From: Nanobdellota archaeon | Lineage (GTDB): Archaea > Nanobdellota > Nanobdellia > Woesearchaeales > GCA-2686295 | Reading direction: 5' to 3' | Assembly: GCA_018819065.1 (NCBI GenBank) | Contig: JAHJQL010000062.1 | Coordinates: forward strand, 1 to 56,488 | Length of the DNA stretch: 56,488 nucleotides | Shown here: positions 28,401 through 52,178 of the stretch, one piece after another | Position numbering within the stretch: the stretch's first letter is position 1 | How the letters are laid out: the number at the start of each line of letters is the position of its first letter | Position numbers and translations under genes: made by a program | Notes under the pieces: model-generated | The model's input: the letters and a program-made list of their open reading frames with translations, nothing else | Told to the model about the DNA's origin: nothing | Database searches by the model: none

Positions 28401-31400
28401 AATCTCTCGTTGACATTTCATGAAAATGTTACCTGCAACATTTCATTAGAGGAATCAGGTAATATTGTGCGTCAGCTCGAAAAGTTTTCTGGTGTGAACA
28501 CTTTTAACCTTTCATTCTTTGACTTGCATGATAGTAATTCTTACAAGTTGATACTAGACTGCTTTGATGATTACAACAACCCTTCAATAAACAGGTCTAT
28601 TGATTTAAGGGTTGAGGGTGATAAGAGTATAACTAATCCTTTACCTTTCCAAGAAAGATTCAATGTCACAACTGTGAATATCTCTGTTGAAACTCCTAAC
28701 GCGACAGGACCAGTTTATTGCAAGTATAGTACTGATAATAAGAAGTTTGCAGATATGAGCACTCCAATAAACATCCCAGTTCAGCACCGATTCCAGGGAA
28801 GCTTTACAGCGAGTAATAATAACAAGAACCACTCTGCAATTCTTATACTAGAAAACTCTGGCGTTTACCTCTTATACACTGCCTGTAACATTAGCTACCG
28901 CGACCCTCAGGGAAAAGAGTATTTTAAGGTTACTGAAGAAAATTTTGGTGACAGAATATTATTCTCTGTTGATTTGTTGCCACCTGTAACTTTGGTCAAC
29001 ACAACCTATCCAACACCAGAAAACGAAACTAGTTTTGAACCTTATTACCAGGATATAACCTTGAAGTTTAAATGCGCTGATATAAACAGGTATAGATCCG
29101 ACGATAATCATTTATGGTATATGAATATGTATGGTTGGAATGGCTCTTTTGGCTGCGGAAAAGTGTTTTTCTGCAACGTAACCGAAGGCCAAAATGATTG
29201 CTTCCCCTTAAAAAAGACAGACGACCCATACACGTTCAGCTTACGGTTCTCACAGCCTAAAATGCAGAATTACACAATCAAGTACTACTCTGTTGATGCT
29301 GGTGGAAACGCGCAAGCCACAAAAAGTAATATAATTAAGATTGACAACATACTAGCAAACTTGACTATGACTCTTAAAAAGAACGGCGCCATAGTTAGTG
29401 AGGTTGGTTATGGTGACTACGTAATCGATGTCGCATCTGATAAACCAATCGCAGCCATAACTAAGTTTGAGCTTAAAAAACCTGCTGCATTCACCGATAA
29501 TGTAAATGCTGTAATAAAAACTGTAGATATGGGTATTTCTGCAACTTATATAATACCTAATAATGCAACAAGCAGTAAACCTAAAGACAAGGCATTTTAT
29601 AATAACAATGATGGTCCTTTAAAGTTTGAAGTCTGGATAATTGACAGCCATCGTCTGGCATCTTCTAAGACTTTTAACTACACCTTTGATACTAGAAGAC
29701 CCGGCACACCCACTTTAGATCCTATATTTAAAGAAACAAATGAGGAAGGTTATCCTTTCAAGTACTCTTACAACAGTATAACTCTTGAAGATGGAACAGT
29801 TTATCCTGCAAAGACCTATTTTGTAAGAGACTCACAACTATTTGTAACAGGAACAACAGAGTTATCAACTAATCTTGGACTGGTTAGTTTATACTTGTTA
29901 AAAAGTGAGGATCCTGGTCTGTATCAAACAAACTTAAAGTATAATCAGACAAAGCAATCAAATAAGGGATCAGCAATAGAAACTGACAGCAAACAAACAA
30001 CATCTGACTTTTCAGCCGATAAAGGGGCAACTCAGATAAAGCTGCAAGGACAGCATCCTAACTGGGCGGCCGGCAAGTATATCACATTCTCTAAAGATGT
30101 TGGAAGAACAACTTATAATCACTTTGGAAAGTTTTACAGGATAACTAATAATGAATTTTTCGGACCTCAAAACCAAGAGACTAGAATAACATTTACACCA
30201 GGCTTAGAAACAAGCGTTGGAAGTAATCGTGATGTTTATCTTTATAATGAAAGTCACATGATTTACTGGTTTGGCATAAATATGAATACTGATTATAAAA
30301 ACCCGCCAGATAATAACAGTTACTTCTTAAGGGCTGGACTTCAAAATAAAAACGACTTCTCAGCTCTAACGATTAGTTATAACTTCTTCTTTGACAACAA
30401 AAAGCCAGACATACATCTAGTCACCCCTGCTTTTGGAGAAACACTTGTTAATGAACTACAACCTTTGAGTATTGAAATAAGAGAAGATGTTGTTGGCTCA
30501 GGAGTCAACAAAGACACTGTGAATTTATCAATCAAATATAATGACGGCGTCGAGAGCGTATACCGTGTCGATACTAATGGATTATTGTTAAGTTATGTGG
30601 GTGTTGAAAATAATGAGAGAAGATACCAATTAAATTATACTCCTAGCAGTCCTTGGGGACATGGAAATTATACCATAAAATTGTTCTTAGAGGATTACGC
30701 TGGAAACAGTTATGATGACCACGGATTGTTAAAGAGTTGCTACCCTTCAAAGGATGGTTGCTGTAATGACGCAGAAGACTCTGTGTGCGACCCTGACTGT
30801 GGACAAGACGCTGACGGAAGTTACATCTTTGGTAAGAGTGATCCTGACTGTCCAACAAATTGCAACTCCACAAGCGGTAACTGCTGTTTACTATTAACTG
30901 ACAATATTTGTGACGATGACTGCTATGACACATGGGATGTGGATTGCAGATGTAGTATTCCTGGTGCTTGTGATACTACAAATAACACTTGGTGTTATCA
31001 AGGAGGATGGATAAATAAAACTTCTGACGGCTCCAAAAAGTATTGTGATTTAGATGTTTGCGGAAATGAAGATCCTGATTGTTTCGATTGTGATAAAGAT
31101 CACGAAGGTGCCTGCAACACTCTAAATAACACTTGGTGCCACAACGTTTCAGGCGGATATTATTGGATTACTGAAGGTTACAATTTACAATGTGGACCTG
31201 TTGATAGTGATTGTCTGAGATTATACACTTACACTGCTTGCACTCAAAACTCTTGTGATGTCGAGAATCAGAAGGTTTGTTCAAACAGTTATTGGACTAA
31301 TCAAAACTATAGTGGCTTATGTAAGAGAAACGACTTCAGCTTCTATGAGTGCTTTGCTGGTGACTGTGACTTATTTAACAACTATGTCTGCTTAAACACA

Positions 31401-32996: not shown

Positions 32997-35900
32997 TGAA
33001 GAAAATATTTTTTTTATTAGCATTAATAATACTAAGCAAGCTAGTTGCATCGCTAGTTTTTTATGATACAAAACCACTTTTAACAACAAACGAGTCTCGT
33101 CCAAACATAATAGTTTCTTACAATGAAAGTGTAACAATAAGTGGCTACAACTTCACAAAAGAAGGTGTTAATTATCAGCTTGCAAAAACAACTTCCGACA
33201 ATAAAGTGTTTTATTTTACCTCTAATAACCGATTAGGAGAAGGACTTTATAATTTCACTATAAGTGCAAAAGATCTTATAGGCAACAAACGAGTAGTTTA
33301 CCAGCCAATACAAATCAATCCCCCTTACATGAAGATTTGGGTTTCCTCGCCGCCTCATGGAGCTTCCAGCACTGCCCCTTTTGACGCTGTCATTGCAAGT
33401 GAAGATGACGCTGTTTGCAGATATGCATTTACTGATAATGGAATTAATTTTAACATGTACAGTTACACGTTTAATCCTGAAAGTCCAAGGCAACATACTA
33501 TTCTGGGTGTTACAAATCCACCCATAGAACTATTCTTGGTATCTCCTGATAGTGGTGCGCGATACAAAAACATATATGTTGCGTGCAACGACACATCAGG
33601 CATTATACACCCTGGAAATGTTACTTTGCAATACGACCCAACACTGCCAGAAATAACCCAAATCTTAAATCCTGTAACTGTTAATGATGTTGAAAGCCCT
33701 TTTGCAACACTAAACATAACAACAAACGACCGGACTATTTGCAGCTATAAAGAAAATGGTGTTGTAAACAACTTTCCAGGATATAACCCGGCTGATATTT
33801 CAACTTACAAAAAAAACCACGGACAATACTTGAATTTTTCATCACTGGCCAAAAGACCAATTCCTCACAAATTCAATGTGGAAACTTTTGAGTATGAAGT
33901 AACTTGCACAAACCTTGCAAGTCTAAGTACAACCGCTCAAAAAGTCATATTAACTGTTGCTTTTGAAGAATCATTCAGCATTCAAATGAGCAGACCAAAG
34001 CCAATTACAAATGCAAACCCCGTTTTTTTTGAGATAAAAACTAGTGTACAAACACCTGGTGGTTGCAAATACGCTCAAGGAACAAATAGTGTTTGGGATA
34101 AAAGTTTTACCAGCAATATAGCAAATCAAGTGTATATAGTTAGTCTTGGAGCTTTAAATGAAGGAATACACCAATATGAGGTTATGTGCACTTCTAGTTA
34201 TGATACTAAAACTAATAATTTCACATTCAGAGTTGACAAGACTCCACCTCAAAACGTCACATTGACTGTTAATGACCCTTCTTGTTCTTTGACAAAGGTT
34301 GAAGGAGTGGTAACTGCTGTTGATAACCACCAAATAGATTATTATAGTTACACTGTGACAAATGAGAATAACACGCTGGTTGCAAATGGCAATACTACTA
34401 ACGGGATTATATCTAAGAGTGTTAACTTGGCTGAAAATACAACTTACAGGGTTAATGCTAAAGCTATTGACAAGGCTGGAAACGCGGCTGATGCTCCTGC
34501 TGTCACGTTCTTGGCTGCTAGCAACACAGGCATCGTTTGTGACAAAACTAAACCAACAACGAGCATCTCAGTAAATCAGACTATTGACGGTGCAAAAGTC
34601 AAGGTTAATTGTCTTGATTCGGGCTCTGGCTGTAAAGACCGGTTTGATTATGGACTGTCCAATCAGTCAAACAATTGTGCATTATCAAACGGGCACAACT
34701 TAAATGAATCAGTATTGTTAATTCAAAATAGTTATTTCTGCTGGACTGTCTATGATTTAAACAATAATAATGCGAGCGGAGTACAACTCGTAACTTATAA
34801 TCTGCATTGCTTTAATGAAATAAATGATCAGGGTGAAACAGGAATAGACTGCGGAGGACCATGCCCTGCTTGTGATGAAAATGCATCTTGTACAAACAAT
34901 TCTGATTGTATAAGTAAGAACTGTCAAAACGGTGTTTGTGTTGCTGCCAATTGCACTGATGGTATAAAGAATCAGGGAGAAACAGGAATAGACTGCGGAG
35001 GACCATGCACATCATGCAACCTACCACCACACTGCACAAACAACATACTAGACTTTGACGAAGAAAGAATAGACTGCGGAGGAATAGAATGCAACCCATG
35101 CACAGAACTACCACCACACTGCACAAACAACATACTAGACTTTGACGAAGAAAGAATAGACTGCGGAGGAATAGAATGCAACCCATGCACAGAACTACCA
35201 CCACACTGCACAAACAACATACTAGACTTTGACGAAAGCGACATCGACTGCGGAGGACTAGAATGTAACCCATGCACAATAGGAGACACATGCAACAACA
35301 ACTCAGACTGCGACAGCAGAATATGCACAAACGGAATATGCACACAAGCAAGCTGCACTGACTTAATACAAAACCAAGGAGAAACAGGAATAGACTGCGG
35401 AGGACCAAACTGCGCAGAGTGCGACCCAGCAATAAAACTAATAAATCCTCCGTTTGGTGTTTCTAAAACAAGGAAATTTGATTTTAAAATACAAACAATT
35501 GACATTGCAACCTGCAGATATGCATGGGATAACTATCCAAACTTTGATCAGTACATTCCTATGAGTGGAGTACAATATATTCATGAGAAAAAAGATTTTG
35601 AACTGGGCGACTTATCTGAAGTTGATTATCCAATCTATGTCAAGTGCAAATTAGAAGATCAAACAATTATTAGTAAGACATTCTTATTATCATGGGACCC
35701 AACACCACCAATCATAACTGACGCGTATCTTGACCACAGTGATGGAAAAGAGCCACCCACAATAACAGATTACCCACTTAATACAAACATAATAATAAAA
35801 ACAGATGACGACACTAGATGCAGATATTCCGAAAACGAAAACACCGCATTTGCTTCGATGACGAAGTTTAACGGATATGATACTACACCATTATTCAGCA

Positions 35901-38924: not shown

Positions 38925-39404
38925 ATGAGAAAAGGACAGATACACCAAGTGTTCATCTACATACTAACTATAATCGTTGTTGGCTTGATACTCTTGATTG
39001 GTTACAAGTCTTTTGGCGGGATAATGAAGAAGGGCTGCGACGTTGAAAAAGCAACTTTTAAATCAACGCTTGAATCTTACATCTCAAAGTACAGCAGTTA
39101 CGGCTCTTTTCACATGGAACCATTAAAAGCTCCTTGTGCTTATCAGCAGATATGCTTTGTCAGCAGCGAAAAGATAGGAGACTCAGGGTTTGATAGCTCA
39201 AACGAAATCATCAAAAGTAGTGTAAAAGAAAGTATTAAAAATAATATTTTCATAGTCAAGGATGTCACAGACGCGATAGGTTTTAATGAAAAAATAGTCG
39301 TTGATAACACAGGCGGAATTGTTTGTATAAATAATACTAATGGTTATTTCAGGGTTAATTTTGAAGGCCTTGGAAGAAACGTATCGATTTCTGGTGTTAG
39401 CTAA
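38925..39404 (+). CDS. class III signal peptide (type IV pilin-like) protein
   Basis: 159 aa. MRKGQ-IHQVFIYILTIIVVGLILLIGY. Confidence 0.75.
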   Translation: MRKGQIHQVFIYILTIIVVGLILLIGYKSFGGIMKKGCDVEKATFKSTLESYISKYSSYGSFHMEPLKAPCAYQQICFVSSEKIGDSGFDSSNEIIKSSVKESIKNNIFIVKDVTDAIGFNEKIVVDNTGGIVCINNTNGYFRVNFEGLGRNVSISGVS

Positions 39405-39405
39405 A

Positions 39406-40404
39406 GTGAAAAAAGGACAGATAGAAATACAGTTTAACTGGATATTTATATTCATAGTTGGAGTTATAATACTAATATTCTTCTTATTCGTGATTAGGTC
39501 TCAGACTAAAAGCGCAGACATTGAATTAGCAGGTGACATTATAAAGAATTTAGACACTGTTGTTAAGAGTGCCCAGACGACTGTTGATGCTGAAAAAATT
39601 ATTGCTATGCCAAACGTTAAGATATCATTTATCTGCGAGCCAGACACAAACATTTCTTTTTACGACCTTGGAAACGGGGTAAAAAAAGATACTCCTTACG
39701 ACATCATTTTTTCTCAAGAAAAACTCTCAGGATACGAGCTTATAAGCTGGACTCAAAGCTGGGACGTGCCTTTTAGAATTGCTACTTTTCAATACTTAAC
39801 AACAAAGAGAGCACAGTTTATCATAGTCAACGACACAGGCACTTTTGCCGAAGAACTAAACAAGTCACTTCCAAAAGGGATGAACAAATTATTCATCAAC
39901 CCAAACGACAACATAGTTGATAACAATTATGATTATTATAAAATAATAGAGTTTGACGGGTCCAAACACACTGGAGACAAACCGACTAAAAATGTTCACA
40001 AAATAATCATACATATTAATTCTGGACAAAGCACGATAGACTCTTATGGAACCGTGAAATTCGATGAACCAGACGTCCCAATAATAAACTTTGTCAAAAA
40101 AGCTTCTTTGTTTGGAGCAATATTCTCAGAGGACGCAGACTTTTACAACTGCACCATGAACAAGGCCTTTGACCGCTTTGAGATTTTAATGAAACTTCAG
40201 CATAACAGAACTGGAGAAATCAAAGACAAGTTACCAGCCGAAATGGCATCTTGCAGGAATATTTTTATTGTTAGTGGGAGTGATATGGACAGTTTATCAT
40301 CAAAAAAATTAGTTGATGCTGCAAACATATTTGAAGGCTCAAAAAAGATAATGCGAGCCAATGAAAACCTAATCAGAGGGAAGAACTGTCCTTTGATATA
40401 CTAA
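39406..40404 (+). CDS. class III signal peptide (pilin-like) protein
   Basis: A GTG start at 39406, 2 nt after the previous stop, gives (M)KKGQ-IEIQFNWIFIFIVGVIILIFFLFVI. The ORF-track start at 39340 overlaps the previous gene and lacks a signal. Confidence 0.7.
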   Translation: MKKGQIEIQFNWIFIFIVGVIILIFFLFVIRSQTKSADIELAGDIIKNLDTVVKSAQTTVDAEKIIAMPNVKISFICEPDTNISFYDLGNGVKKDTPYDIIFSQEKLSGYELISWTQSWDVPFRIATFQYLTTKRAQFIIVNDTGTFAEELNKSLPKGMNKLFINPNDNIVDNNYDYYKIIEFDGSKHTGDKPTKNVHKIIIHINSGQSTIDSYGTVKFDEPDVPIINFVKKASLFGAIFSEDADFYNCTMNKAFDRFEILMKLQHNRTGEIKDKLPAEMASCRNIFIVSGSDMDSLSSKKLVDAANIFEGSKKIMRANENLIRGKNCPLIY

Positions 40405-40407
40405 ACT

Positions 40408-40896
40408 ATGAAAAAGAAAGCTCAGATGCAGATGGGAGAATCAATAGCGATAATAGTTATAGTTCTTCTTTTAATAGTCGGCAGCATGGTCTTCTACGCC
40501 AAGATAAAAGCAGCGTCAATTGGTGAGAAGAAATCATTGTTTCAAGAGCTTGACGTGATCAAACTGTCGCAAGTAGCATACGGCCTCTCAGAGGTTCAGT
40601 GCTCGTTTGCAGAAGTAAGTGATTATGGCTGCATTGACATCTTAAAGTTTACATACCTCTCAAACTTGATAAACACTAGCTCTGGTAAGACTTATTTTTA
40701 TTACAGGGAGTTGTTTGGAACCTCAAAAATCTACCTTAAGAGCATCAACAACACTGGAGGAGTGACTTATTATGAGCTTTATCATAACAAGAGGAACTCA
40801 ACAGGCAATTCAAGCACTTTCATGCCAACAATAATATACAACCCAATAACTGGGCATAACACTTTTGGGATTTTAACAGTTGTTAAATATGACTAG
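40408..40896 (+). CDS. class III signal peptide (pilin-like) protein
   Basis: 162 aa. MKKKAQMQMGESIAIIVIVLLLIVGSMVFY (KA-Q variant). Confidence 0.7.
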   Translation: MKKKAQMQMGESIAIIVIVLLLIVGSMVFYAKIKAASIGEKKSLFQELDVIKLSQVAYGLSEVQCSFAEVSDYGCIDILKFTYLSNLINTSSGKTYFYYRELFGTSKIYLKSINNTGGVTYYELYHNKRNSTGNSSTFMPTIIYNPITGHNTFGILTVVKYD

Positions 40897-41371
40897 GAAA
40901 AAAGGACAAATGGAGATAATGGGATTAATAGTTATAGTGGTATTGTTAGCGCTTTCAATGTTCTTCGTTGTGATATTTAAAACTACTCAGCCAAAAAAGG
41001 AGATTCAAAAGTCTTTTAGCGATGATCAACTAGCATCAAAGTTTCTTATAACAACATTAAAAACTAGCGCTGGTTGTCGGGATTACACGATTGAAAGCTT
41101 AATACAGGACTGCGCCACTGACAGGAGGATAAGTTGCAACGGCGTTGACTCCTGTGAGTTTGTCAAGAACACCACAAAAGTATTTGTCAATGAAACGTTT
41201 GTCAAGTATAATAGCAAGTACAACTTCACGATAGAAAACCTTCCAACTGTAAACATTACATTCTCCGATTCCTGCAGTCCAAAAAACATTAACCGAGACC
41301 TCGCATGGCAGCCACTAACACTCTACCCCCACCATGGAACTGTCATTGTAAAGATATACATCTGCAAATAA
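40889..41371 (+). CDS. class III signal peptide (pilin-like) protein
   Basis: ATG at 40889 gives MTRKKGQ-MEIMGLIVIVVLLALSMFFVVIF. It overlaps the previous stop by 8 nt. Confidence 0.75.
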   Translation: MTRKKGQMEIMGLIVIVVLLALSMFFVVIFKTTQPKKEIQKSFSDDQLASKFLITTLKTSAGCRDYTIESLIQDCATDRRISCNGVDSCEFVKNTTKVFVNETFVKYNSKYNFTIENLPTVNITFSDSCSPKNINRDLAWQPLTLYPHHGTVIVKIYICK

Positions 41372-41419
41372 AAATTTTTGCGAAACTTTTTTATAATCAA
41401 GAACACAAAGTTTTTCTAC

Positions 41420-41527
41420 ATGGGCGAAGCAATTTTAGAATCATTTAAGACTTACTTAGTTGTTGCAGCAATGATTCTCTTGCTACTGTTCATAGTAGTT
41501 TTTGGAATTTTAAGGAGGGGTTTTTGA
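41420..41527 (+). CDS. small single-TM protein (35 aa), hypothetical
   Basis: MGEAILESFKTYLVVAAMILLLLFIVVFGILRRGF*. A TATA-like TTTTTATAAT lies about 28 nt upstream. The stop overlaps the next ATG (TGATG). It is below the ORF-track cut-off. Confidence 0.4.
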   Translation: MGEAILESFKTYLVVAAMILLLLFIVVFGILRRGF

Positions 41528-42372
41528 TGAATAAAAAAGGAATGAGCCAGGCGGTACTGCTTTTTTTTATAATAATACTAGTCTCAGCGGTTGTTATCTT
41601 TATATTTGTAGGTCAACTTCAAGGAGCAGTTCATAAAGGCAACAGAGGTGCGTCTTGCTTGACTTCAATGACTCTAAGAAGCCATACAACATCAGAAGAC
41701 TTACTTGTTAGAACATTTGAGGGAACAAATGAGTTCTGCCCAAAATATCAAGTCACTTTTTATAAAAAATACGCGGAGATAAAATTAAAAGACAAGACTT
41801 TTGACAAGATAAAATATGATGAACTAACAAGTGAGAAAGTAAACGAGATAATTGCTGAAGAAATGAGGTATTGCTGGGCACAGTTTGGAGGTGGAAAACT
41901 AGATGCTTTTTGGCTTCCTGAAACAATCTTTCAAAAATATGTTCCGTTCTTTGGAAAAGCATCAAACGATGCCATTGGTTGCAGAGTTTGCTCTGAAATA
42001 AGTTTAGTTTTAGAAGATGTAAATACTAAAAGTAATTTTACAGGTTTGAGACAATACTTAAAAAAACATGATATAACAAAAAAGATACAAAAAGAAGGTG
42101 AAAAAGGAACATACTACTCATACCTTGCAGAGCACGAGCAAGGATGTGGAGATTATGTTGGTGGAGAAAACTGCTGGGAAGAATTCGCTAAGGATGATGA
42201 AGTAATGATAAACACAAGCTTAAGCATAGATCCAAACGAAGCATATCTTGTTGTTTTTATCAGAAAAAACATAAAACAGAACGAAGGCGTGATGAACACA
42301 TATCTAATATCACAAGATTTGATGGATTGGTATAATGAAGAAGAAACCTGTAAGCCATTGCCGTTCATCTAA
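41527..42372 (+). CDS. class III signal peptide (pilin-like) protein, paralog of 42377..43249
   Basis: MNKKGM-SQAVLLFFIIILVSAVVIFIFV. It shares MR.CW..., C..C and FT... blocks with the next ORF. Confidence 0.7.
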   Translation: MNKKGMSQAVLLFFIIILVSAVVIFIFVGQLQGAVHKGNRGASCLTSMTLRSHTTSEDLLVRTFEGTNEFCPKYQVTFYKKYAEIKLKDKTFDKIKYDELTSEKVNEIIAEEMRYCWAQFGGGKLDAFWLPETIFQKYVPFFGKASNDAIGCRVCSEISLVLEDVNTKSNFTGLRQYLKKHDITKKIQKEGEKGTYYSYLAEHEQGCGDYVGGENCWEEFAKDDEVMINTSLSIDPNEAYLVVFIRKNIKQNEGVMNTYLISQDLMDWYNEEETCKPLPFI

Positions 42373-42376
42373 GAAA

Positions 42377-43249
42377 ATGAGAAAAGGAACGCTGCTTCAA
42401 GAATACAACTTAGGAGTTATTCTTCTAGTAGTCACAATTTTAGTAATAATAATATTCTTCACAGCAACAGCCAAGCAAACAGATAAATCAATAGAAGAAA
42501 GCGAATGCCACAAACAAGTAGTTGCTCATGTCCAAGCATTAAAACTCTCAAACAGTGAGTATGCAACAGAGATTAAATGCCCGATAATATTTGAAACCTT
42601 AAAAGAAAAAAAGGAAAAAGAGATAAAACAAGCGCTTGCAGAGAGGATGAGGAAGTGCTGGTATAACTGGCAGGAAGGAAATGCAAATTTATTCACAGGA
42701 AAAGGGGTTTACTGTCATCCTTGCTATATTCTTAATTTTGAACATGATAACGTTGAAATCAAAGACTTCACAAAGTTCCTCATAGAAACGACCGTGCCCA
42801 ACAAAGATTATAAATACATACAATACTTAACAGGCACAACAAACAATGAAGATTTCAAAGCAGAAAAACTGTCACAAAATCCCAAAATAAGAAGTTCAAC
42901 ATCTGATTTTAACACAAAAACTTCGAAAGTAATCTTGTTTTATTACATCAAAGATTCTGATAAGATAAAAGAATTTTGGGGAACAGCGAAAAGTACTTTT
43001 GAAGGAGCAGCAATAGGCACTGTAGGGGGTGCTGTTCTTGGTGGTGTTGCTGGATCAGTCTTTGGACCAGCAGGTATTGTTGTTGGTGTAAAAATTGGCG
43101 CAACAGTAGGAGCACTCGCAGGAGCATTCATAGCCGGAACATTTGCCGATGATTATCCATTGTGGTTATCCTATGTTTTATTAAGAGAATACAACGAAGA
43201 TAAATTAAAAGAACTAGGCTGTGAAACTGCTCCCGCAAAACAAAATTAA
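42377..43249 (+). CDS. class III signal peptide (pilin-like) protein with C-terminal glycine-zipper segment
   Basis: The internal ATG at 42377 gives MRKGT-LLQEYNLGVILLVVTILVIIIFF. The C-terminal segment is GAAIGTVGGAVLGGVAGSVFGPAGIVVGVKIGATVGALAGAFIAGTF (about 42995-43140). Confidence 0.7.
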   Translation: MRKGTLLQEYNLGVILLVVTILVIIIFFTATAKQTDKSIEESECHKQVVAHVQALKLSNSEYATEIKCPIIFETLKEKKEKEIKQALAERMRKCWYNWQEGNANLFTGKGVYCHPCYILNFEHDNVEIKDFTKFLIETTVPNKDYKYIQYLTGTTNNEDFKAEKLSQNPKIRSSTSDFNTKTSKVILFYYIKDSDKIKEFWGTAKSTFEGAAIGTVGGAVLGGVAGSVFGPAGIVVGVKIGATVGALAGAFIAGTFADDYPLWLSYVLLREYNEDKLKELGCETAPAKQN

Positions 43250-43280: not shown

Positions 43281-43430
43281 ATGACTAAAAAAATGTTTAA
43301 TAAGAAAGGTGAAGAAATTTCAGAATTAATGAAGTGGTTGCTATTTATAGTCATTTTAGTGACGTTAGTACTTATAATTTGGATGACACAAAAAGGTTTA
43401 TCAATTAAAAGTATATTTCCGTTTTTTTAA
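43281..43430 (+). CDS. mini class III signal-only ORF (49 aa)
   Basis: MTKKMFNKKGE-EISELMKWLLFIVILVTLVLIIW... It shares the MFNKKG start with the ORF at 44139 and is below the ORF-track cut-off. Confidence 0.4.
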   Translation: MTKKMFNKKGEEISELMKWLLFIVILVTLVLIIWMTQKGLSIKSIFPFF

Positions 43431-44052: not shown

Positions 44053-44138
44053 AACCTCAGCCATACTTGAAATTTACAAAAAATTTATATAGTAATTACT
44101 CCATTTTTTAATAAGCTTAATATGAGGTGTTAATGAAA

Positions 44139-44396
44139 ATGTTTAATAAAAAAGGTCAAGGAATAAGTATTAACGTGATTATAATTGCAGCAATAGCACT
44201 TCTGGTCCTGGTAATTTTATCAGTTCTTTTGATTAGAAGTGGAGGAAACGTTGTTACAGGAACATCATGTGCAGGTGTAGGTGGAACTTGCAGTTCTTCA
44301 TGCTCAGATTTATCTGAAGGAACAAAGATATACTCCCCACATCCAACCGCGAAATGCACAGATTCCAACGATAAATGTTGCATAATCCTTGGATAA
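44139..44396 (+). CDS. mini-pilin with 6-Cys C-terminal knot (array member 1)
   Basis: GAGGTG Shine-Dalgarno-like element 9 nt upstream. MFNKKGQ-GISINVIIIAAIALLVLVILSVLLI. Head is C-x6-C-x3-C-x17-C-x6-CC. Confidence 0.75.
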   Translation: MFNKKGQGISINVIIIAAIALLVLVILSVLLIRSGGNVVTGTSCAGVGGTCSSSCSDLSEGTKIYSPHPTAKCTDSNDKCCIILG

Positions 44397-44400
44397 AAAA

Positions 44401-44658
44401 ATGATTAAAAACAAAAAAGGAGACATAAGCATCAGCGTCATAATCATGATTGCAATAGGCCTTTTAGTGTTGATAGTGATTGCAATTCTGATATTTAGGT
44501 CTGGTCAAAGCGCATCAAGTGGAACTAGTTGCATATCAAAAGGTGGCGTTTGCAAGCAAACCTGTGAGGTTGGCCACGCCATAGGCACCGCTGGAATGTA
44601 TGGTTGTAACACTGAGACTTGCTGTAGCCCGGTAAAAAGGGATGATTGGGGAACATAA
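44401..44658 (+). CDS. mini-pilin with 6-Cys C-terminal knot (array member 2)
   Basis: MIKNKKGD-ISISVIIMIAIGLLVLIVIAILIF. Head is C-x6-C-x3-C-x13-C-x4-CC. Confidence 0.75.
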   Translation: MIKNKKGDISISVIIMIAIGLLVLIVIAILIFRSGQSASSGTSCISKGGVCKQTCEVGHAIGTAGMYGCNTETCCSPVKRDDWGT

Positions 44659-44915
44659 TGTATAAAAAAGGCGAAATATCAACTTCAACAATGATATACA
44701 TAGGTTTAGGACTCCTAGTATTAATACTAGGGGCTATAATGATTTCAAAAGCTTATAGAAACAGTCAACAAGTAAACAGCAACTGTGGTCTCGTAGATAA
44801 AAACTCTAAATGTCAACCACAGAAATGTCCAGAAGATCAATCAGCAATAGGATTTTGCCCTGACAAATCATCATCACCAGAAGAAAAATATTATTGTTGT
44901 AAAACTAGTGGTTGA
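44658..44915 (+). CDS. mini-pilin with 6-Cys C-terminal knot (array member 3)
   Basis: MYKKGE-ISTSTMIYIGLGLLVLILGAIMI. Head is C-x8-C-x4-C-x9-C-x12-CC. The start overlaps the previous stop (TAATG). Confidence 0.75.
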   Translation: MYKKGEISTSTMIYIGLGLLVLILGAIMISKAYRNSQQVNSNCGLVDKNSKCQPQKCPEDQSAIGFCPDKSSSPEEKYYCCKTSG

Positions 44916-44916
44916 A

Positions 44917-45216
44917 ATGGTTAAAACTAATAAAAAAGGACTAACAATGGACATGTTTGGAAAAGTTGTGCTTATGGTCATTGTAGTTCTTGTTGGAATA
45001 GCTATAGCATTAAAGATAGGTCCCACAGTATCTAAAGGAGAGGAAACTTTTTCTTGTGGCAACACTGGTAATATGTCTAATGGGACTTGTGTAGAAAACA
45101 AAGCCAAATGCCAAGAATTAGGAGGCTTCTCCAGAGGACTTGACAAGGGTTGTAGCAGTTCAACTAAAACAGACGACCCACAGAAACCTTACTGTTGTGA
45201 AATACCTAAATCATGA
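44917..45216 (+). CDS. mini-pilin with 6-Cys C-terminal knot (array member 4)
   Basis: MVKTNKKGL-TMDMFGKVVLMVIVVLVGIAIAL. Head is C-x10-C-x6-C-x13-C-x13-CC. Confidence 0.7.
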   Translation: MVKTNKKGLTMDMFGKVVLMVIVVLVGIAIALKIGPTVSKGEETFSCGNTGNMSNGTCVENKAKCQELGGFSRGLDKGCSSSTKTDDPQKPYCCEIPKS

Positions 45217-46691
45217 TGAAAAAAGGCGAAATTAGTCTTCTGGTAACACTTACAATCACAGTCATATTTTTAATACTAGTTTTCATCGTGACGTTAAAGT
45301 TAATCGGACCATTGCTTTGGAATGAAAAAAACAGCGTGTCTTACGAGAACTATAAACTATTAACAACAGCAGTAGAAAGTGTGACGAAGTCAAAGATGAA
45401 TACTTCAATGCAAAAAATGGTTCTTCAATTAGAGCCAGGATTTGACATAATAGCATTTGACCCTGGAGAGGGTAAGATAAAAACAGACATACCAAAGTGG
45501 CTGGTTTTTAAAGAAGCATCACGTGATAGACCTGATGAATGTGAAACAAATAAAGGTTGTCTATGCATATATAAAGGTGGATCGGTTATTGAATGCAAAA
45601 GCTTTGAAAAAACTTATTTTTTTAGTGAACTTAATAGTGATATGATTAGTCAAAGTATGGGAGAAGAAAAAAAAACTCACACTCTTAGTTCTTATAAATA
45701 TGAAGGAATCATGTTTTTTGGAGATTTAGAATTAGCATTATTAGCAATAATATCTGTTGATTCAACTCTTTTTGGTGTTCAACCAATGTATGTAGAGAAT
45801 TACAGGGATAAAGGCAATAATTACGTGTTGATTTCTAATCTCAACAACAAGCTCTTAAAAAGATTTAAGATGATTAGTAAATGCCCAACAGATAAGTCTG
45901 ATGGAGGCTGTAATAAATATCAGCATTATGATGAAGTATTTAACTTAACAGATAGTAATGGTAAGATTGATTATTTTGTTTGTAAATTCAATGAGAAGAG
46001 TGAAAAATGTGTGAATAAAAGCATAGAACTATGCGCACCTGGAATGATAGATTGGGAGTGTGCGTGTGGAGATACTGCTTATGAATTTGGAATGTGTATT
46101 AATGAAGGGTATTATGATGCAGATATTAGCAGTGAGTACTGTTTCATAAACAAGTTTGATGAATCGTCTACTTGTAAAACTTATGAAGATGGATCTGATG
46201 CTGAGCAAAATAAGTATGCATGTACATTCAACCGTTGTGGTGTTAAAGATAAGTGTTATTGGAACAATGATGATTGTGAAGCTTGTGAGCAGACTTGTTT
46301 GTGCAAAGACTATGGGGGTAAAGATGGTTGGATTAGATTCATTGATCCATGCGACTGTGACAAAGACAAAAAACCCCTCGACACAGATGACTGTTTAAAT
46401 TGTCAAAACGAAATAAAGAAAGACTGTAAGAACTACCTTTCAGAAAATCAATGCATAAAAAATGGGTGTTTCGTAAGCGTTATATATTCAAACCAACAAA
46501 CCGGATCAACACCGTCTATCAAAGGTTGTATACCTGAATATTCAGGAAATGAATATAAACAGTGTGTCAATTGTTTGGAAAGTTGTGATTGTAAAGATTA
46601 TGTTAACGCAAAAATGAAGATGTTAGATCTTTGTGATTGTGACAAGGATAGACTAATAGGTGAATCTGAAACAGCAGATGGATGTCAGTAA
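45213..46691 (+). CDS. class III signal peptide (pilin-like) protein with Cys-rich C-terminal half
   Basis: 492 aa. MMKKGE-ISLLVTLTITVIFLILVFIV. The C-terminal ~200 aa have many Cys, including two C.CKDY...D.CDCDKD units. Confidence 0.75.
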   Translation: MMKKGEISLLVTLTITVIFLILVFIVTLKLIGPLLWNEKNSVSYENYKLLTTAVESVTKSKMNTSMQKMVLQLEPGFDIIAFDPGEGKIKTDIPKWLVFKEASRDRPDECETNKGCLCIYKGGSVIECKSFEKTYFFSELNSDMISQSMGEEKKTHTLSSYKYEGIMFFGDLELALLAIISVDSTLFGVQPMYVENYRDKGNNYVLISNLNNKLLKRFKMISKCPTDKSDGGCNKYQHYDEVFNLTDSNGKIDYFVCKFNEKSEKCVNKSIELCAPGMIDWECACGDTAYEFGMCINEGYYDADISSEYCFINKFDESSTCKTYEDGSDAEQNKYACTFNRCGVKDKCYWNNDDCEACEQTCLCKDYGGKDGWIRFIDPCDCDKDKKPLDTDDCLNCQNEIKKDCKNYLSENQCIKNGCFVSVIYSNQQTGSTPSIKGCIPEYSGNEYKQCVNCLESCDCKDYVNAKMKMLDLCDCDKDRLIGESETADGCQ

Positions 46692-48107: not shown

Positions 48108-48643
48108 TTAAAGGCAAAAAAGGGCAAGAAATGATTGTTGACATATTCTCATATTTATTATTCATAATAATAATTTTAACATTCATAATCTTACTGTTTC
48201 ACCAAGAAAAAGAAACCAGAAAGAACATCGCAACAGGCGTAAGAGCTGATTTTTACGAGACCAGACTCTTAATACTCATGAGACAACCAATCACTGGGAC
48301 TTATCAAACATTTGCGGAGATGATTATTGATTCACCATATAATGATTATAAAAAAGATTTTGTTTCAAAAGAAATAACAAACACTTTTGACAAAGAATGG
48401 GGTGAATGGTGGGACTTTACAGTATACACTCAAAAACCATTAGGAAGAGAACAAAAAAAATGGGATACTGGTTATAGCTTTACTGGACAAGCAGCTGTTA
48501 ATATCTTAAAAAACTTTATCGCCATGGCAGTAGGAAGCAAAATACCACTACCCTTATCTTATCCTGTTGAAATTTCAGTAACTCTTCCAGGTCATAACAA
48601 CGAAAATATAATTGTGAAATTCAGATATTGGATGATTGCATAG
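48104..48643 (+). CDS. class III signal peptide (pilin-like) protein
   Basis: 179 aa. MIKGKKGQ-EMIVDIFSYLLFIIIILTFIILLF. ATGA overlap with the previous gene. Confidence 0.7.
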   Translation: MIKGKKGQEMIVDIFSYLLFIIIILTFIILLFHQEKETRKNIATGVRADFYETRLLILMRQPITGTYQTFAEMIIDSPYNDYKKDFVSKEITNTFDKEWGEWWDFTVYTQKPLGREQKKWDTGYSFTGQAAVNILKNFIAMAVGSKIPLPLSYPVEISVTLPGHNNENIIVKFRYWMIA

Positions 48644-48653
48644 GTATAAAAAA

Positions 48654-51600
48654 ATGAATAAGAAAGGACAAATATTTGTGTTGATGATTTCGATATTCAT
48701 GGGAATAGCATTATTCACCATATTCATAAGTTTAAATAACAAATACTCTGCGGCAAGAGTAGCCAGCACAAGCATAGGCAGTAGTGCATCAGCAGTGATT
48801 AACACTTATCAAAAACAAGAAGCAGCACTGCTCTACCTTGACTTATCAGCACAGCAAGCGCTTCAAAAAAGCCTGTATGACCTTGGAGAAAACGGTGGCT
48901 TTGACCTCGCAGAATGCGGAAGTTCAATATACCCACTATGGAACACCCACGACAAGAACTGCATCCCAGACTATGAAGAAAACCTAAAAAAACTCTTCAA
49001 GCCAGAACTTGAAAACAGAACAAGCAAATTTAATGATGTACAATTTGCAAAAGACTACGAATTCACTGTAAATCCCTCTAACGGACAAGTCGAAATAATG
49101 GGGTTGACTAGTGAGAAGATAACACTCGCGGTTGCTAAAGACTCCAAAGTAAAGCAAGTAACTTCTTCACAAACAACTGGACAACTACAAACAACATACA
49201 AACTTTATGAGTCAGTAAAAAACAAAGTTAATACTTTTGACTCAACAATCCAAGAAGCTGCAAAGAAATACGATCTCCCACCAACAGTACTCAAAGCACA
49301 AATCGCTGTAGAATCTAGCGGAGATCCGAAAATCATTAATCATCTTGGATGTGCAGGTCTTGGCCAGTTTTGTACAATCAGCGGAACGGCACAACAATAT
49401 TTCGGAACAAATAACGTTGTAGTCATAGAAAAGGAGCCTAAATGTCAAAAAACAGGTAATTTTTACAAATGTGATACAACAATATACTCTAAAGACGATC
49501 GTTTTGTTCCCGCAAAGATGATTGAAGCACAAGCAAAATATCTCAAAGAATTATCTGACAGGTATAAAAAAAAAGGATACACAGATTACTTTGCATTTGG
49601 CCTCGCAGCTTATAACAGAGGAGCCGGAAATATTGATAACGATATAATTAAAACCGGCAAGGATGACCCTTCGTGGGCAGATATTTCTCTTGTTTCCGGA
49701 TTTCCTGTTGAAGCAAAAAATTATGTCCCAAAAATAAATGAATACAACCTTCAATGGGGAGAGGGCGGAAAGGATATAAGTCTTGGATATGGATATATTG
49801 GAGGGTACGATGCAGTGATTGGCACTTTTGAATTCGAGCAAAACTTCAAAGCAACGGAAGGCTACAACTTAACAGTTTATGAAGAGCTTAAAACGTTTGT
49901 CAAAGACGCGCTTAGAGACTGTGATAACGCCGTTGATGATTGCATAGAGATTAAAAGAACAGATTTTAACTCAAAACACAGCGAACAAATTGTTTATATG
50001 AGTGATTGCGAGGAAGGAACTACTAAAATTCTTTATGACTTTGCAGAGAATATAATTGATTGCGGAGACACTACTAGTGATAATTGTAAGTGCAAGGTTA
50101 ATGAGGATTATAGTGCTTCAACAGTTGCTTCGATTCAGGGAAAATATCTTTTCTCTGCAAAATTTCACGAGTTCAAGTTTGGTGGAGGTACAAATCTTGA
50201 TCAAAAACCAATACATTGGGTGAACGACCTTAACAACACCTTTAACAAATCTTTTGAAGATGAGATGAACAGGATAATTGATTCCTTTGAAGAGAATACA
50301 GGGGTTGAAATCGCAATTATAAGCATCCAGTCTACCAGTGATATAGAGAATGAAGGTAAAAGCTTTTTTAATTATTGGGGTGTTGGAAAGAAAGATGAGA
50401 AGAATGGGATACTAATCATCGTATCGACAAATCCAGAAGCGTCAACTATCATACTTGGTGAAGGATTAAACAAAATCATAACAAACGATGTGCTTTCTCA
50501 AATGAAAACAAAATTAGCATCCAGCCTAAGTAACAAAAAGGTTGAGGTTGGAATTACAGAAGTGGTCAACACAATAATTACGAAAGTCAAGACTAAGTAT
50601 GAAGAGGAAGACTTTAAAAAAAAGTCTCCTGAGAGATACGACCTTGAACTTAAAGGAGATAAAGATTTAATTAGTGTGAAAGCAAAGACTTACCACATCA
50701 ACTGGTTGCCTTTGACTAAAAATCAATATGGATACAGCTACTCATTTTTTTATAAGGATACTGGTAAGTTTGACTTTGCAAGCATTAAATTCATAGACAA
50801 ACAAGGGGGAGTGCATGAAATTTCTAATTTTAAAAACCTTTCCCTGCTAAAGAAAAAAGATAATTTTTCATTCATAATGAGCAATGATAATGGAAAAGTA
50901 ATGAATGAGACTAATGAAGAAATAACCCCTCCAAGTGACAACTGCGAACCTGCAAAGAGCATATTTAGGATGTGTCTGAAAACCAATAATAAACTGCCAG
51001 TGATGGAGGATAATAAGTTACAATATAAAGAATCAAAGATAAAATTCGCACTTAACCTGATTGACAAGGTTCCACCAGAAAAAGCAGAGAACTTAGAGTT
51101 TGTGTGGCTATCTGACATACAAAGGGTGTTGATAACTTGGGAAGAGAAAAAGACAGTAGACATGGCTACTTATTATGAAATATTCTACTCAGACAAAGCG
51201 TTCACTACGCCAACCACTAATCTTTGGCTTGCAACAGTCTATAAAAAGGTTAATATAACTGGTAATTCAAGTTACGACCGATTAAGAGAAGGAAAATCAG
51301 GCAATCCACCAGTGCAACCAATCACTCCTAACATACCAACGTCTCCAGTCACACCACCAACAGCTGATGACGAAGATGCAGATAAACTAAGTACAGTGGT
51401 TGATAACTTCGTTGATACTTCACAAAGTGATCCTAACTCGCCAAGCAACCTTCTTAAAATACTTCATAACAACACTTTATACTTTGAAGACCCTCAAACA
51501 GGAAAACCTCATTATAGAAAATATTATTTACTAATTAAAAAAGACTCAATAATCCAAGAAGCTGATAAATCAAAAACAAACCTAGAATACCACTTTGGAA

Positions 51601-52178
51601 TTGTTGGATCAGATAAATATGGAAACAAAATCATTGAAAAGATAGAAATATTAAAAATACCAATCTCAAACTTGTGCGGAGCAGTAGTTGAGTACGCTAA
51701 AGAATATATAGGAACAGGCTACATTCCCAAACGAGAATTTTATAATGGATGGAGTATCTGCAAAGCAAGTGACGCGAATAAAAGATTATGTAGGACTCAA
51801 TGCGGATCTTTTGTCACAAATGCTTTTAGATACGCACCAGATACGGGATTAACAGACTCAGAGTTACCAAAAGGTGATGGAAGTAAAAAATGTGCTGGAC
51901 CAAATGTAAAGTACCGTTTTTCAAATTCTGAAGAGCTACAACCAGGAGACATATTCTCTGTGATTGGAGGCGAAGGCCACACAGGAATATATATTGGTGT
52001 GGGAACTTTAAGCGATAAAGCACAAAATAAAAACTGTTTCTTAAAATTCACTCCTGACAACAATGGTGAACAAGTCTTCATACATTCTATAGAGCCTGTT
52101 TGTTATAATACTTTAGAACAACTAGAAACAATGGGATACAAAATTAATCGCTATTGTAGAGTTAATGCTTGCGCTTGA
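48654..52178 (+). CDS. pilin-like-signal multidomain cell-wall hydrolase: lytic transglycosylase (SLT) + TPM domain + FN3-like + NlpC/P60 peptidase
   Basis: MNKKGQ-IFVLMISIFMGIALFTIFISL. SLT motifs AVESSGDP, GLGQF and AAYNRGAGN. TPM motifs GVEIAIISIQS...NGILIIVS...IILGEGL. Pro-rich linker. NlpC/P60 motifs QCGSFVTNAF...GHTGIYIG...FIHS. Confidence 0.85.
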   Translation: MNKKGQIFVLMISIFMGIALFTIFISLNNKYSAARVASTSIGSSASAVINTYQKQEAALLYLDLSAQQALQKSLYDLGENGGFDLAECGSSIYPLWNTHDKNCIPDYEENLKKLFKPELENRTSKFNDVQFAKDYEFTVNPSNGQVEIMGLTSEKITLAVAKDSKVKQVTSSQTTGQLQTTYKLYESVKNKVNTFDSTIQEAAKKYDLPPTVLKAQIAVESSGDPKIINHLGCAGLGQFCTISGTAQQYFGTNNVVVIEKEPKCQKTGNFYKCDTTIYSKDDRFVPAKMIEAQAKYLKELSDRYKKKGYTDYFAFGLAAYNRGAGNIDNDIIKTGKDDPSWADISLVSGFPVEAKNYVPKINEYNLQWGEGGKDISLGYGYIGGYDAVIGTFEFEQNFKATEGYNLTVYEELKTFVKDALRDCDNAVDDCIEIKRTDFNSKHSEQIVYMSDCEEGTTKILYDFAENIIDCGDTTSDNCKCKVNEDYSASTVASIQGKYLFSAKFHEFKFGGGTNLDQKPIHWVNDLNNTFNKSFEDEMNRIIDSFEENTGVEIAIISIQSTSDIENEGKSFFNYWGVGKKDEKNGILIIVSTNPEASTIILGEGLNKIITNDVLSQMKTKLASSLSNKKVEVGITEVVNTIITKVKTKYEEEDFKKKSPERYDLELKGDKDLISVKAKTYHINWLPLTKNQYGYSYSFFYKDTGKFDFASIKFIDKQGGVHEISNFKNLSLLKKKDNFSFIMSNDNGKVMNETNEEITPPSDNCEPAKSIFRMCLKTNNKLPVMEDNKLQYKESKIKFALNLIDKVPPEKAENLEFVWLSDIQRVLITWEEKKTVDMATYYEIFYSDKAFTTPTTNLWLATVYKKVNITGNSSYDRLREGKSGNPPVQPITPNIPTSPVTPPTADDEDADKLSTVVDNFVDTSQSDPNSPSNLLKILHNNTLYFEDPQTGKPHYRKYYLLIKKDSIIQEADKSKTNLEYHFGIVGSDKYGNKIIEKIEILKIPISNLCGAVVEYAKEYIGTGYIPKREFYNGWSICKASDANKRLCRTQCGSFVTNAFRYAPDTGLTDSELPKGDGSKKCAGPNVKYRFSNSEELQPGDIFSVIGGEGHTGIYIGVGTLSDKAQNKNCFLKFTPDNNGEQVFIHSIEPVCYNTLEQLETMGYKINRYCRVNACA
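49236..49680 (+). other. SLT-type lytic transglycosylase domain (approximate bounds)
   Basis: LKAQIAVESSGDPKII (Glu codon 49311-49313), AGLGQF and GLAAYNRGAGNID. Confidence 0.75.
50240..50620 (+). other. TPM-domain (approximate bounds)
   Basis: FEDEMNRIIDSFEENTGVEIAIISIQSTSDIENEGKSFFNYWGVGKKDEKNGILIIVSTNPEASTIILGEGLNKIITND. Confidence 0.65.
51690..52160 (+). other. NlpC/P60 cysteine peptidase domain (approximate bounds)
   Basis: AVVEYAKEYIGTGY..., catalytic-type Cys in QCGSFV (51801-51803), LQPGDIF, His in GHTGIYIG (51978-51980), then FIHS. Confidence 0.75.

Follow-up and report, generated by a model that had tools for sequence, protein, structure and literature searches.

A tandem array of candidate mini-pilins with beta-defensin-like six-cysteine heads in a Nanobdellota archaeon

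Archaeal type IV pilin-like proteins, such as the EppA- and PibD-processed pilins of Methanococcus and Sulfolobus, share a basic leader ending in [KR]-[GA], a Q or E at position +1 and a helix of about 20 residues, and tiny major pilins are known among them. The same features, together with a lollipop shape, several pilin genes per operon and a very small mature size, recur in four adjacent genes, here called para1 to para4, that lie at positions 44139-45216 on the + strand of a 56,488-nucleotide stretch of DNA (the window) from a Nanobdellota archaeon (GenBank assembly GCA_018819065.1, contig JAHJQL010000062.1). Whereas the heads of archaeal type IV pilins are beta-sandwiches or alpha-beta-rolls, those of the mini-pilins would each consist of one 40-55-aa three-disulfide module; the mini-pilins also lack a match to a curated model, have no adjacent assembly genes and are confined to DPANN of the Woesearchaeota/Nanoarchaeota type. 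In the D-region of bacterial type IVa pilins, a disulfide stabilizes the exposed C-terminal part, as is proposed for the mini-pilin heads, but it is a single bond within a larger alpha-beta head of unrelated fold that lacks a CC doublet. The family goes unmentioned in a 2026 survey of archaeal type 4 filament systems (bioRxiv 10.64898/2026.04.22.720090) and no description of it turned up in Pfam, NCBIfam or the literature searched on DPANN/Woesearchaeota pilins and prokaryotic defensin folds; as a pilin, it has an unprecedented head.

The six cysteines of these heads follow the order found in animal beta-defensins, whose consensus is C-x(4-8)-C-x(3-5)-C-x(9-13)-C-x(4-7)-CC. Beta-defensins pair their cysteines 1-5/2-4/3-6, big defensins join a hydrophobic N-terminal domain to a beta-defensin-like domain, and the trans-defensins as a whole have been stated to be exclusive to animals (PMC7203481). 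Tick carboxypeptidase inhibitor (TCI; MEROPS I68; PDB 1ZLH, 2K2Z) is built of two beta-defensin-like repeats, and the rusticalin-like proteins of ascidians, corals and placozoans combine Cx6Cx6-7Cx8Cx7CC repeats, which resemble beta-defensins and TCI, with a peptidoglycan peptidase (PMC6339383). The archaeal heads are like beta-defensins, big defensins, defensin-like peptides (DLPs) and helianthamide (PF00711, PF13841, Defensin_3, Defensin_big) in their cysteine order, their loops (x6/x3-6/x10-13/x5-6), a glycine two residues before the second cysteine (C2), a small predicted antiparallel sheet, the pairing deduced for them and reciprocal profile matches below threshold. They are unlike them in being archaeal, anionic and fused to a pilin helix instead of being free secreted peptides, and loop 3 of para1 (17 residues) and all loops of para4 lie beyond the usual ranges. 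Among the matches of the head profile the best is TCI, through its C-terminal domain alone; this animal inhibitor is soluble and has two domains, whereas the mini-pilins carry one domain behind a hydrophobic helix. Rusticalins, likened to the archaeal module by description, are animal secreted proteins without a pilin part.

We consider it rather probable that the four proteins are minimal type IV pilin-like subunits, each bearing a head that is held by three disulfides and resembles a beta-defensin, with para1 as the major and para2-4 as the diversifying minor subunits of a conserved Woesearchaeota surface apparatus linked to a lytic transglycosylase. The four open reading frames (ORFs) are real genes, since they have conserved homologs and a conserved six-cysteine frame, and purifying selection acts on para1. 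Chance ORFs were ruled out by this conservation, and the minus-strand shadow ORFs at 44156-44383 and 44874-45146 were set aside because the plus-strand frames are the conserved ones.

The first gene, para1 (44139-44396, +), encodes an 85-aa mini-pilin with a class III signal and the head C-x6-C-x3-C-x17-C-x6-CC. It is followed by para2 (44401-44658, +; 85 aa; C-x6-C-x3-C-x13-C-x4-CC), by the fast-evolving para3 (44658-44915, +; 85 aa; C-x8-C-x4-C-x9-C-x12-CC) and by para4 (44917-45216, +; 99 aa; C-x10-C-x6-C-x13-C-x13-CC), the most divergent of the four. All begin M..KKG, continue with a hydrophobic run of about 20 aa and end in a 45-55-aa head with six cysteines, so that cysteine makes up about 13% of each head (6 in ~45 aa), as against ~1.2-1.5% in housekeeping proteins of the window such as leucyl-tRNA synthetase (LeuRS; 11 in 949 aa) and carbamoyl-phosphate synthase (CPSase; 16 in 1065 aa). 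A 4-nt gap separates para1 from para2, para2 and para3 overlap by 1 nt (TAATG), para3 and para4 are 1 nt apart, and para4 overlaps the next gene, at 45213, by 4 nt (ATGA); with such close or overlapping junctions the four genes are translationally coupled. An earlier note, made from the letters of the DNA, had described four back-to-back ORFs with abutting or overlapping ends, cysteine spacings of 6-3-17-6-0, 6-3-13-4-0, 8-4-9-12-0 and 10-6-13-13-0, and a [KR]KG tip with a hydrophobic helix in all four, as well as a 49-aa headless ORF at 43281 with the same MFNKKG start; coordinates, junctions and translations agree with it on each of these points.

The four genes are presumably co-transcribed, and transcription of the array probably starts from a promoter of its own, to judge by the TATA-box-like element TTTATATA (44084..44091, +), which is preceded by an A-rich stretch resembling a B recognition element (BRE) and lies 48 nt upstream of the ATG at 44139. 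A TATA-like element, (A)AAATTTATATA or TTTAAATA, stands at a similar distance before the first mini-pilin in 64 of 72 related loci. The Shine-Dalgarno-like GAGGTG (44124..44129, +), 9 nt upstream of the same ATG, is kept upstream of para1 orthologs in nearly all loci inspected. Although in-frame alternative starts occur at 44133 and 44127, the start at 44139 (MFNKKG...) is favoured because the spacing of GAGGTG fits and homologs also start there. Para1 is the probable major subunit because it is conserved best among the cluster proteins and is preceded by a putative BRE/TATA promoter of its own and by a strong Shine-Dalgarno sequence; among the options left by the earlier note, that of structural subunits is favoured on the same grounds.

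A search of 5.8 billion proteins with para1 returned 237 homologs at E<=1, of which 120 were listed and underlie the per-sequence figures. A class III signal was found in 114 of these 120, with K or R at -2, and with G in 89 and A in 25 at -1; position +1 holds Q (96) or E (17), most leaders have 4-6 aa, and the hydrophobic run spans 20-25 aa. By its sequence, the N-terminal motif is an archaeal class III (prepilin-like) signal. AlphaFold predicts, for para1, a helix at residues 7-41 and a beta-sheet head with a short helix (predicted local distance difference test score, pLDDT, 79.5) and, for para3, a helix at residues 9-37 and three strands (pLDDT 74.5); the N-terminal helix itself scores 91-95 in both, giving a lollipop architecture of a long helix and a small head. 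Those homologs that bear a name are all called 'hypothetical' except for one labelled DUF948. When the four proteins and their neighbours were compared with the family libraries, a DUF948 match (E 0.094) and other weak matches fell on the hydrophobic helix and were disregarded.

The head is a recurrent module. In a set of 316 unique modules, loops of 6, 3 (also 6), 11 and 5-6 residues are the modal ones. Glycine occupies position -2 relative to C2 in 240 of them and position -3 in 200. The consensus reads xxxxC-xxx-GG-x-C-xxx-C...C-xxxxx-CC-x-P; a turn of the form GG-x-C precedes C2, and the module closes with CC-[IV]-P. The order and the terminal CC are kept in all four paralogs; para2 lies within the beta-defensin consensus ranges, para3 fits them except for loop 4 (12), loop 3 of para1 is too long at 17, and every loop of para4 is outside. 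When a head-only profile of 83 heads was compared with 177,635 PDB sequences, the best match was the C-terminal domain of TCI (E 2.3e-6, 31 bits), extending beyond the cysteines to C-x-G-K-G-G-x-C and G-Q-K-C-C-V. Further matches were human beta-defensin 106 (hBD-106; 0.0022), another human beta-defensin (0.0025), hBD-1 (0.012), helianthamide (0.024), DLP-1 (0.038), mouse beta-defensin 8 (mBD-8; 0.047) and big defensins (0.07-1.5); judged by name, 24 of the 26 PDB matches at E<=10 are proteins of the beta-defensin fold. In the opposite direction, some of the same 83 heads gave sub-threshold matches to the Pfam models Defensin_beta (PF00711; 20 heads, best 8.3e-5), Defensin_beta_2 (8), Inhibitor_I68 (7), Defensin_3 (3), Defensin_int (2), Myotoxins (2) and Defensin_big (1), whereas the window proteins gave no Pfam defensin match at E<=1.

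The top fold matches of the predicted structures, though not significant, are defensins too. The only plausible Foldseek matches of para1 in the PDB are platypus DLP-2 (template modelling score, TM, target-normalized, 0.55) and mouse beta-defensin 8 (0.48), and the top match of para3 is the human alpha-defensin HNP4 (TM target-normalized 0.67, root-mean-square deviation 2.9 Å, 17% identity). Natural variants suggest how the cysteines pair. In three four-cysteine proteins (P0026, L021:10004 and L017:1787) C3 is lost together with C6, the CC having become CY, so C3 would pair with C6; in L055:12899, compared with its six-cysteine ortholog L057:12917, C2 has become S and C4 has become Y, so C2 would pair with C4. 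Four other four-cysteine forms, in which CC is kept and C4 is absent, are compatible with this map. With C1-C5 as the remaining pair, we infer the arrangement 1-5/2-4/3-6, and we propose, from these profiles and models, that the heads adopt or closely mimic the beta-defensin (trans-defensin) fold. An inhibitor cystine knot fold was considered and rejected, only weak Toxin_12 matches being found (best E 0.033). The earlier note had called the heads possibly disulfide-knotted, a wrong word since the beta-defensin fold is not a cystine knot, and had taken the defensin likeness for a pattern match only; the cysteine order it saw stands, and the likeness goes beyond pattern to a two-way profile similarity, the top fold matches and a deduced 1-5/2-4/3-6 pairing.

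The cysteine framework is conserved among relatives, so that the lack of conservation which the earlier note had named as evidence against its reading was not seen. Exactly six cysteines in the order C..C..C..C..CC occur in 118 of the 120 listed para1 homologs, and exactly six in 194 of 241 mini ORFs with a class III signal from 80 related loci (handles beginning with L) and the window. In a scan of one genome per species, the family was present in 77 genomes, all of the Woesearchaeota/Nanoarchaeota/Nanobdellota type, and the labels of homologs and loci read DPANN, Woesearchaeota, Nanoarchaeota or Nanobdellota. Several third-party annotation (TPA) bins that carry the cluster (L004, L009, L011, L012, L016 and others) are titled 'uncultured Methanosarcinales archaeon', and P0008 is attributed to a Bacteroidota bin; both are probably taxonomic mislabels or binning errors.

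Conservation drops steeply from para1 to para4. In five loci, the orthologs of para1 share 76, 67, 72, 62 and 59% identity with it, against 25-58% for all other cluster proteins, and the ratio of nonsynonymous to synonymous rates (dN/dS) of para1 is 0.16 relative to L004, the closest locus, with a dN of 0.06 in the helix and 0.27 in the head; the ratio is informative for para1 only (dS ~1), para2, para3 and the neighbours being saturated. The helix of para1, NVIIIAAIALLVLVIL, is nearly invariant. Para2 shares 42-54% identity with its orthologs (dN 0.41). With orthologs of para3 and para4 taken by position from related loci, identity is 39% (L004) or undetectable for para3 (dN 0.77) and 27-32% or undetectable for para4. 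Among the 5.8 billion proteins para3 has one close homolog only, and a word-based homolog search with para4 returned the query and no other homolog.

That the four genes are paralogs, as the earlier note had it, is plain for the first two and indirect for the others. Para1 and para2 align by BLASTP at 52% identity over 54 aa (E 8e-16), and the hidden Markov model (HMM) of the head matches para2 at 5e-9; para3 and para4 have no detectable pairwise BLASTP homology to the other paralogs. When heads alone were compared with the family by hhalign, the para3 group reached a probability of 79.5% (P 1.5e-5) and the para4 group 35% (P 4e-4). Because of these head-only alignments, the position in the array, the shared helix and cysteine order and the predicted model of para3, we favour a common origin of para3 and para4 by tandem duplication, the case for para4 being weaker than that for para3. 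An iterative full-length HMM started from para3 and para4 merged nearly all minis and was left unused for head homology, as the shared helix drives the merging. The broader proposal of disulfide-rich pilin heads that diversify by tandem duplication is supported by the near-universal signal motif, the helix-plus-head models, arrays of variable size and the conservation gradient.

Related loci contain one to five six-cysteine minis, and several of them show what else can be built on the module. At the third position of several sister loci (L001, L007, L018, L029, L031, L038), the helix and six-cysteine module are followed by a long cysteine-rich extension of 300-600 aa, giving proteins of 360-690 aa in total, and in L028:13045 and L053:13312 two complete modules with 12 cysteines stand in tandem behind one pilin helix. 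Both arrangements indicate that the module is an autonomous domain and can be a base for larger displayed parts. In three para1 orthologs with eight cysteines (L005:10010, L008:10010 and L011:2023), C2 becomes CC and an extra cysteine appears after C3, a pair of additions that implies a fourth disulfide.

The module also extends beyond the mini-pilins of DPANN. A second head-only profile, made from the window and search-derived sequences, was compared with 1.84 billion representative proteins and matched 80 of them at E<=0.001. About half of these are mini-pilins of 78-104 aa with a single module, and a class-III-like N-terminus is present in at least 31 of the 72 new matches. The remaining matches are mostly multi-repeat proteins. 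Some join the module to a GH25 muramidase (P0123), to a VWA domain (P0126) or, behind a class III signal, to a dockerin (P0124). Two others, P0137 (438 aa) and P0189 (227 aa), carry two to three module repeats with a pilin domain of type IV secretion systems (T4SS; VirB2/TrbC-like, PF18895), and P0137 has in addition an NlpC/P60 peptidoglycan hydrolase; by sequence these two look bacterial, possibly from the candidate phyla radiation (CPR), and would represent a different filament system displaying the same head. Lipoprotein-like, Asp/Gly-rich multi-repeat proteins of bacterial appearance (P0127, P0128, P0141, P0152, P0158 and others) were also found. In P0122, which is XP_068250204.1 of the shrimp Palaemon carinicauda (1606 aa), 25 stretches match the head profile; the protein has no Pfam family at E<=0.01, and its annotation as 'neurogenic locus notch homolog protein 2-like' is probably wrong. 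The module copies in the proteins matched outside the mini-pilins belong to no Pfam family.

The pairing of rusticalin repeats with a peptidoglycan enzyme parallels the fusions of the module to GH25 and NlpC/P60 and the presence, in the cluster around the array, of a large protein with an SLT domain. Taken together, the fusions to filament subunits and peptidoglycan hydrolases, the rusticalin analogy and the SLT protein suggest a role of the module in binding cell-wall material.

In the mechanism that we propose, each protein would be made with a positively charged leader of 4-8 residues ending in K-G, which a class III signal (prepilin) peptidase, presumably encoded elsewhere in the genome, would remove. 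Cleavage would expose a hydrophobic helix beginning with Q, E or D, which would anchor the protein in the membrane and most likely pack into the core of a thin filament. The exposed part would then be the head alone, 40-55 residues with three disulfides, C1-C5, C2-C4 and C3-C6. Para1 would serve as the major subunit, and para2-4, arisen by tandem duplication, as progressively faster-evolving minor or alternative subunits. As in the third position of sister genomes, the module could act as a pilin-proximal base that displays larger adhesive parts. It is likely that the cluster as a whole encodes a filament or another apparatus at the surface, by which the cell would attach to a host (probably a peptidoglycan-bearing bacterium) and breach its wall.

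Several observations weigh against this interpretation. The array is known here from its genes and from predicted models, the label 'pilin' is drawn from the signal motif, the predicted architecture and the neighbourhood, and class III signals in archaea also target non-filament surface proteins. None of the four proteins matches a pilin model at E<=1 in Pfam or NCBIfam, and none of the solved pilins and archaellins is matched by the full-length profile. The window was found to contain neither an ATPase for pilus assembly nor a platform protein or prepilin peptidase. A motif scan (PilB/FlaI-type (T2SSE) Walker A; A24 GxGD) of ORFs of >=120 aa, made on the window and on 80 related loci with 10-kb flanks, likewise revealed no such assembly gene up to 10 kb from the array. 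As for the heads, the head HMM recognized para1 and para2 alone among all window ORFs, no defensin match reaches a curated family threshold, the Foldseek matches, with E-values of 2.3-5.7, are not significant, the head pLDDT is only 61-83, and the disulfide map comes from a handful of natural variants of different subfamilies. Cysteine columns dominate profiles of this kind, and defensins were among the structures on which AlphaFold was trained; a shared cysteine framework can moreover pull cysteine-rich profiles, the amino-acid term of Foldseek and the training set of AlphaFold, and the likeness may be convergent.

The absence of assembly genes is nevertheless local rather than decisive, because split loci are known and pili have been reported in ultra-small prokaryotes: type IV-pilin-like genes and pili are on record for such cells, and the pilin genes of some archaeal type 4 filament systems lie apart from the machinery genes (bioRxiv 10.64898/2026.04.22.720090). 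Filament formation itself we infer. The same absence of assembly genes speaks for another reading, in which the proteins are surface-anchored recognition modules that form no pilus, the class III signal merely delivering and anchoring them, and the larger cluster proteins, in the membrane or in a complex that spans the S-layer. Archaeal bindosome sugar-binding proteins use class III signals in a comparable way. About 17 very different proteins of the cluster, enzymes (SLT) included, share the N-terminus, as would be expected of a general anchoring or sorting device, and the lack of any match to a pilin family model agrees with this as well. The extreme conservation of the para1 helix (NVIIIAAIALLVLVIL, dN 0.06), however, fits helix packing in a polymer better than a lone anchor, the strong promoter and Shine-Dalgarno sequence that para1 has to itself are those expected of an abundant structural subunit, and the same head is fused elsewhere to T4SS pilin domains; with the split arrangement of pilin and machinery genes just cited, these points make an anchored, non-filamentous system unlikely, though it deserves more weight than the other alternatives.

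If the heads were instead defensin-like antimicrobial or toxin peptides, they would be released or presented at the surface to kill or permeabilize neighbours. The beta-defensin-like framework with its profile and fold matches, the peptidoglycan-degrading SLT protein encoded alongside and the rapid diversification of para3 and para4, which resembles an arms race, would all suit such a function. Antimicrobial defensins are described as cationic, whereas the C1..C6 core of the archaeal heads has a mean net charge of -2.8 (median -3), with 6% positive and none at >= +3. Besides, the head stays covalently joined to a hydrophobic helix of 35 residues, a conserved site for a second processing step was not seen, and strong purifying selection acts on para1, which looks the most abundant of the members. 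The option of a released toxin or antimicrobial peptide, which the earlier note had raised, is disfavoured by this charge and by the lack of any sign of a second, freeing cleavage, and we regard an antimicrobial role as improbable.

A function as protease (carboxypeptidase) inhibitors, by analogy with TCI, would account for the best PDB match (E 2.3e-6) and for the Inhibitor_I68 matches of 7 of the 83 heads. From the mode of inhibition of TCI, an inhibitory tail would be expected to be conserved, yet the tails after CC vary in length and sequence in the mini-pilins, which are single domains on a pilin helix where TCI is a soluble two-domain protein, and the neighbourhood contains no pointer to proteases; inhibition is thus a very unlikely role. 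Equally far-fetched is the binding of a metal (Zn or Fe) by the six cysteines in place of disulfides, which the anoxic waters inhabited by many DPANN and a weak, sub-threshold rubredoxin-like match of para3 (NCBIfam, E 0.0015; 18 bits, the cutoff being 45) might suggest, but which disagrees with the loss of cysteines in pairs (C3 with C6, C2 with C4) and not in fours, with the likewise paired extra cysteines (L005, L008, L011), with the spacing, GG-x-C and CC features of a disulfide fold and with the extracellular location of the domain.

Within the preferred reading of para1 to para4 as pilin-like subunits, Archaea have in these heads their first candidates for beta-defensin-like domains. Homology and convergence are indistinguishable with the profile, fold and cysteine data at hand, and we hold it possible, but less probable than its opposite, that the six-cysteine GG-x-C...CC module is a genuine prokaryotic member of the trans-defensin (beta-defensin) superfamily. 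If it were, the beta-defensin fold would not be exclusively animal-born but an ancient extracellular module, possibly cell-wall-binding, which ultra-small episymbionts display on filaments and of which animals later made cationic host-defence peptides; the architecture of big defensins would then be a faint echo of the pilin arrangement. Should a structure confirm the fold, the statement that trans-defensins occur in animals only (PMC7203481) would need revision, and the origin of beta-defensins could be tested against prokaryotic relatives.

The array also provides the probable major subunit, together with a set of variable minor ones, of a conserved surface apparatus that is specific to the uncultivated archaea of the Woesearchaeota type. 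This apparatus is genetically linked to large lytic transglycosylase proteins, and large SLT proteins have served as an argument for attachment of such archaea to bacteria or predation on them (PMC8204110, PMC9723730). The para1 protein, small and presumably abundant, is a concrete target for antibodies, proteomics and electron cryotomography (cryo-ET). In addition, a 45-residue three-disulfide module that tolerates large loop variation and would be displayed on a polymer makes an attractive engineering scaffold.

The array sits inside a + strand gene run of ~30 kb (22095-52178), in which ~17 genes start with [KR]-G/A and a hydrophobic segment. The conserved core of this cluster is formed by six genes upstream of the array (38925..43249, +; 159, 354, 162, 163, 282 and 304 aa), all with the [KR]-G/A and hydrophobic N-terminus, whose orthologs occur in the same order in L001, L004, L007, L018, L029 and most other loci; none of the six proteins belongs to a Pfam or NCBIfam family. 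The last of them, the 304-aa pilin-like protein (42335-43249, +), is conserved in related loci at ~290-310 aa with 6-9 cysteines. It has a C-terminal glycine-zipper segment (weak Gly-zipper_YMGG match, E 5.5e-4), on account of which it could be anchored at both ends. Between this gene and the array lies the headless mini-pilin-like ORF (43281..43430, +; 49 aa, MTKKMFNKKGEE...), which has a leader and a helix and zero cysteines. In most related loci a zero-cysteine class-III-signal ORF of 40-55 aa occupies the same spot just upstream of the array (e.g. L001 9102-9230). It may be a filament primer, a cap or spacer subunit, or a regulatory peptide.

Downstream, and translationally coupled to para4, follows a cysteine-rich class-III-signal protein (45213..46691, +; 492 aa, 36 cysteines) that has no Pfam family. 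Its repeats, C-x-C-K-D-Y...D-x-C-D-C-D-K-D, look like Ca-binding or thrombospondin-type-3 (TSP3) repeats, and its orthologs (385-576 aa, 20-40 cysteines) come after the array in related loci. The last gene of the cluster (48636..52178, +) encodes an 1180-aa protein with a class III signal (N-terminus MNKKGQIFVLMISIF) and Pfam matches to SLT (7.7e-12) and TPM_phosphatase (1.4e-20), and in related loci, too, its orthologs come last in the cluster. Large SLT proteins had been noted before in Woesearchaeota/Pacearchaeota, where they have been read as tools against bacterial walls, and pilin-type signals and mini-proteins go unmentioned in those reports (PMC8204110, PMC9723730). The pilin-type N-terminus of the SLT protein and its fixed position at the cluster end appear not to have been noted before.

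At the head of the cluster stand two giant cysteine-rich secreted proteins with Sec-type N-termini, one of 2510 aa with 150 cysteines (25464-32996, +) and one of 1957 aa with 102 cysteines, TSP3 repeats and an Ig-like domain (32996-38869, +). The head HMM found no six-cysteine module in either, so the giants are not built of this module; homologous giants of ~2100 aa with ~120 cysteines occur in related loci, e.g. L019, L020 and L053. Across related loci the gene order, given as protein length in aa and number of cysteines (C), is 160/4C, 330/4C, 165/2C, 160/6C, 280/8C and 300/6-8C, then the headless ORF of ~47 aa, one to five minis, a protein of 400-580 aa/20-40C, 285/2C, 180/0C and a final protein of 750-1140 aa.

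The window has a G+C content of ~35% and contains an archaeal signal recognition particle (SRP) RNA and archaeal housekeeping genes for RadA, RPA, ribosomal proteins, LeuRS and the RNase P subunit Rpr2. At 19449-19572 on the - strand, Rfam places a tRNA of 124 nt (32.6 bits); missed by ARAGORN, it is probably an intron-containing archaeal tRNA.

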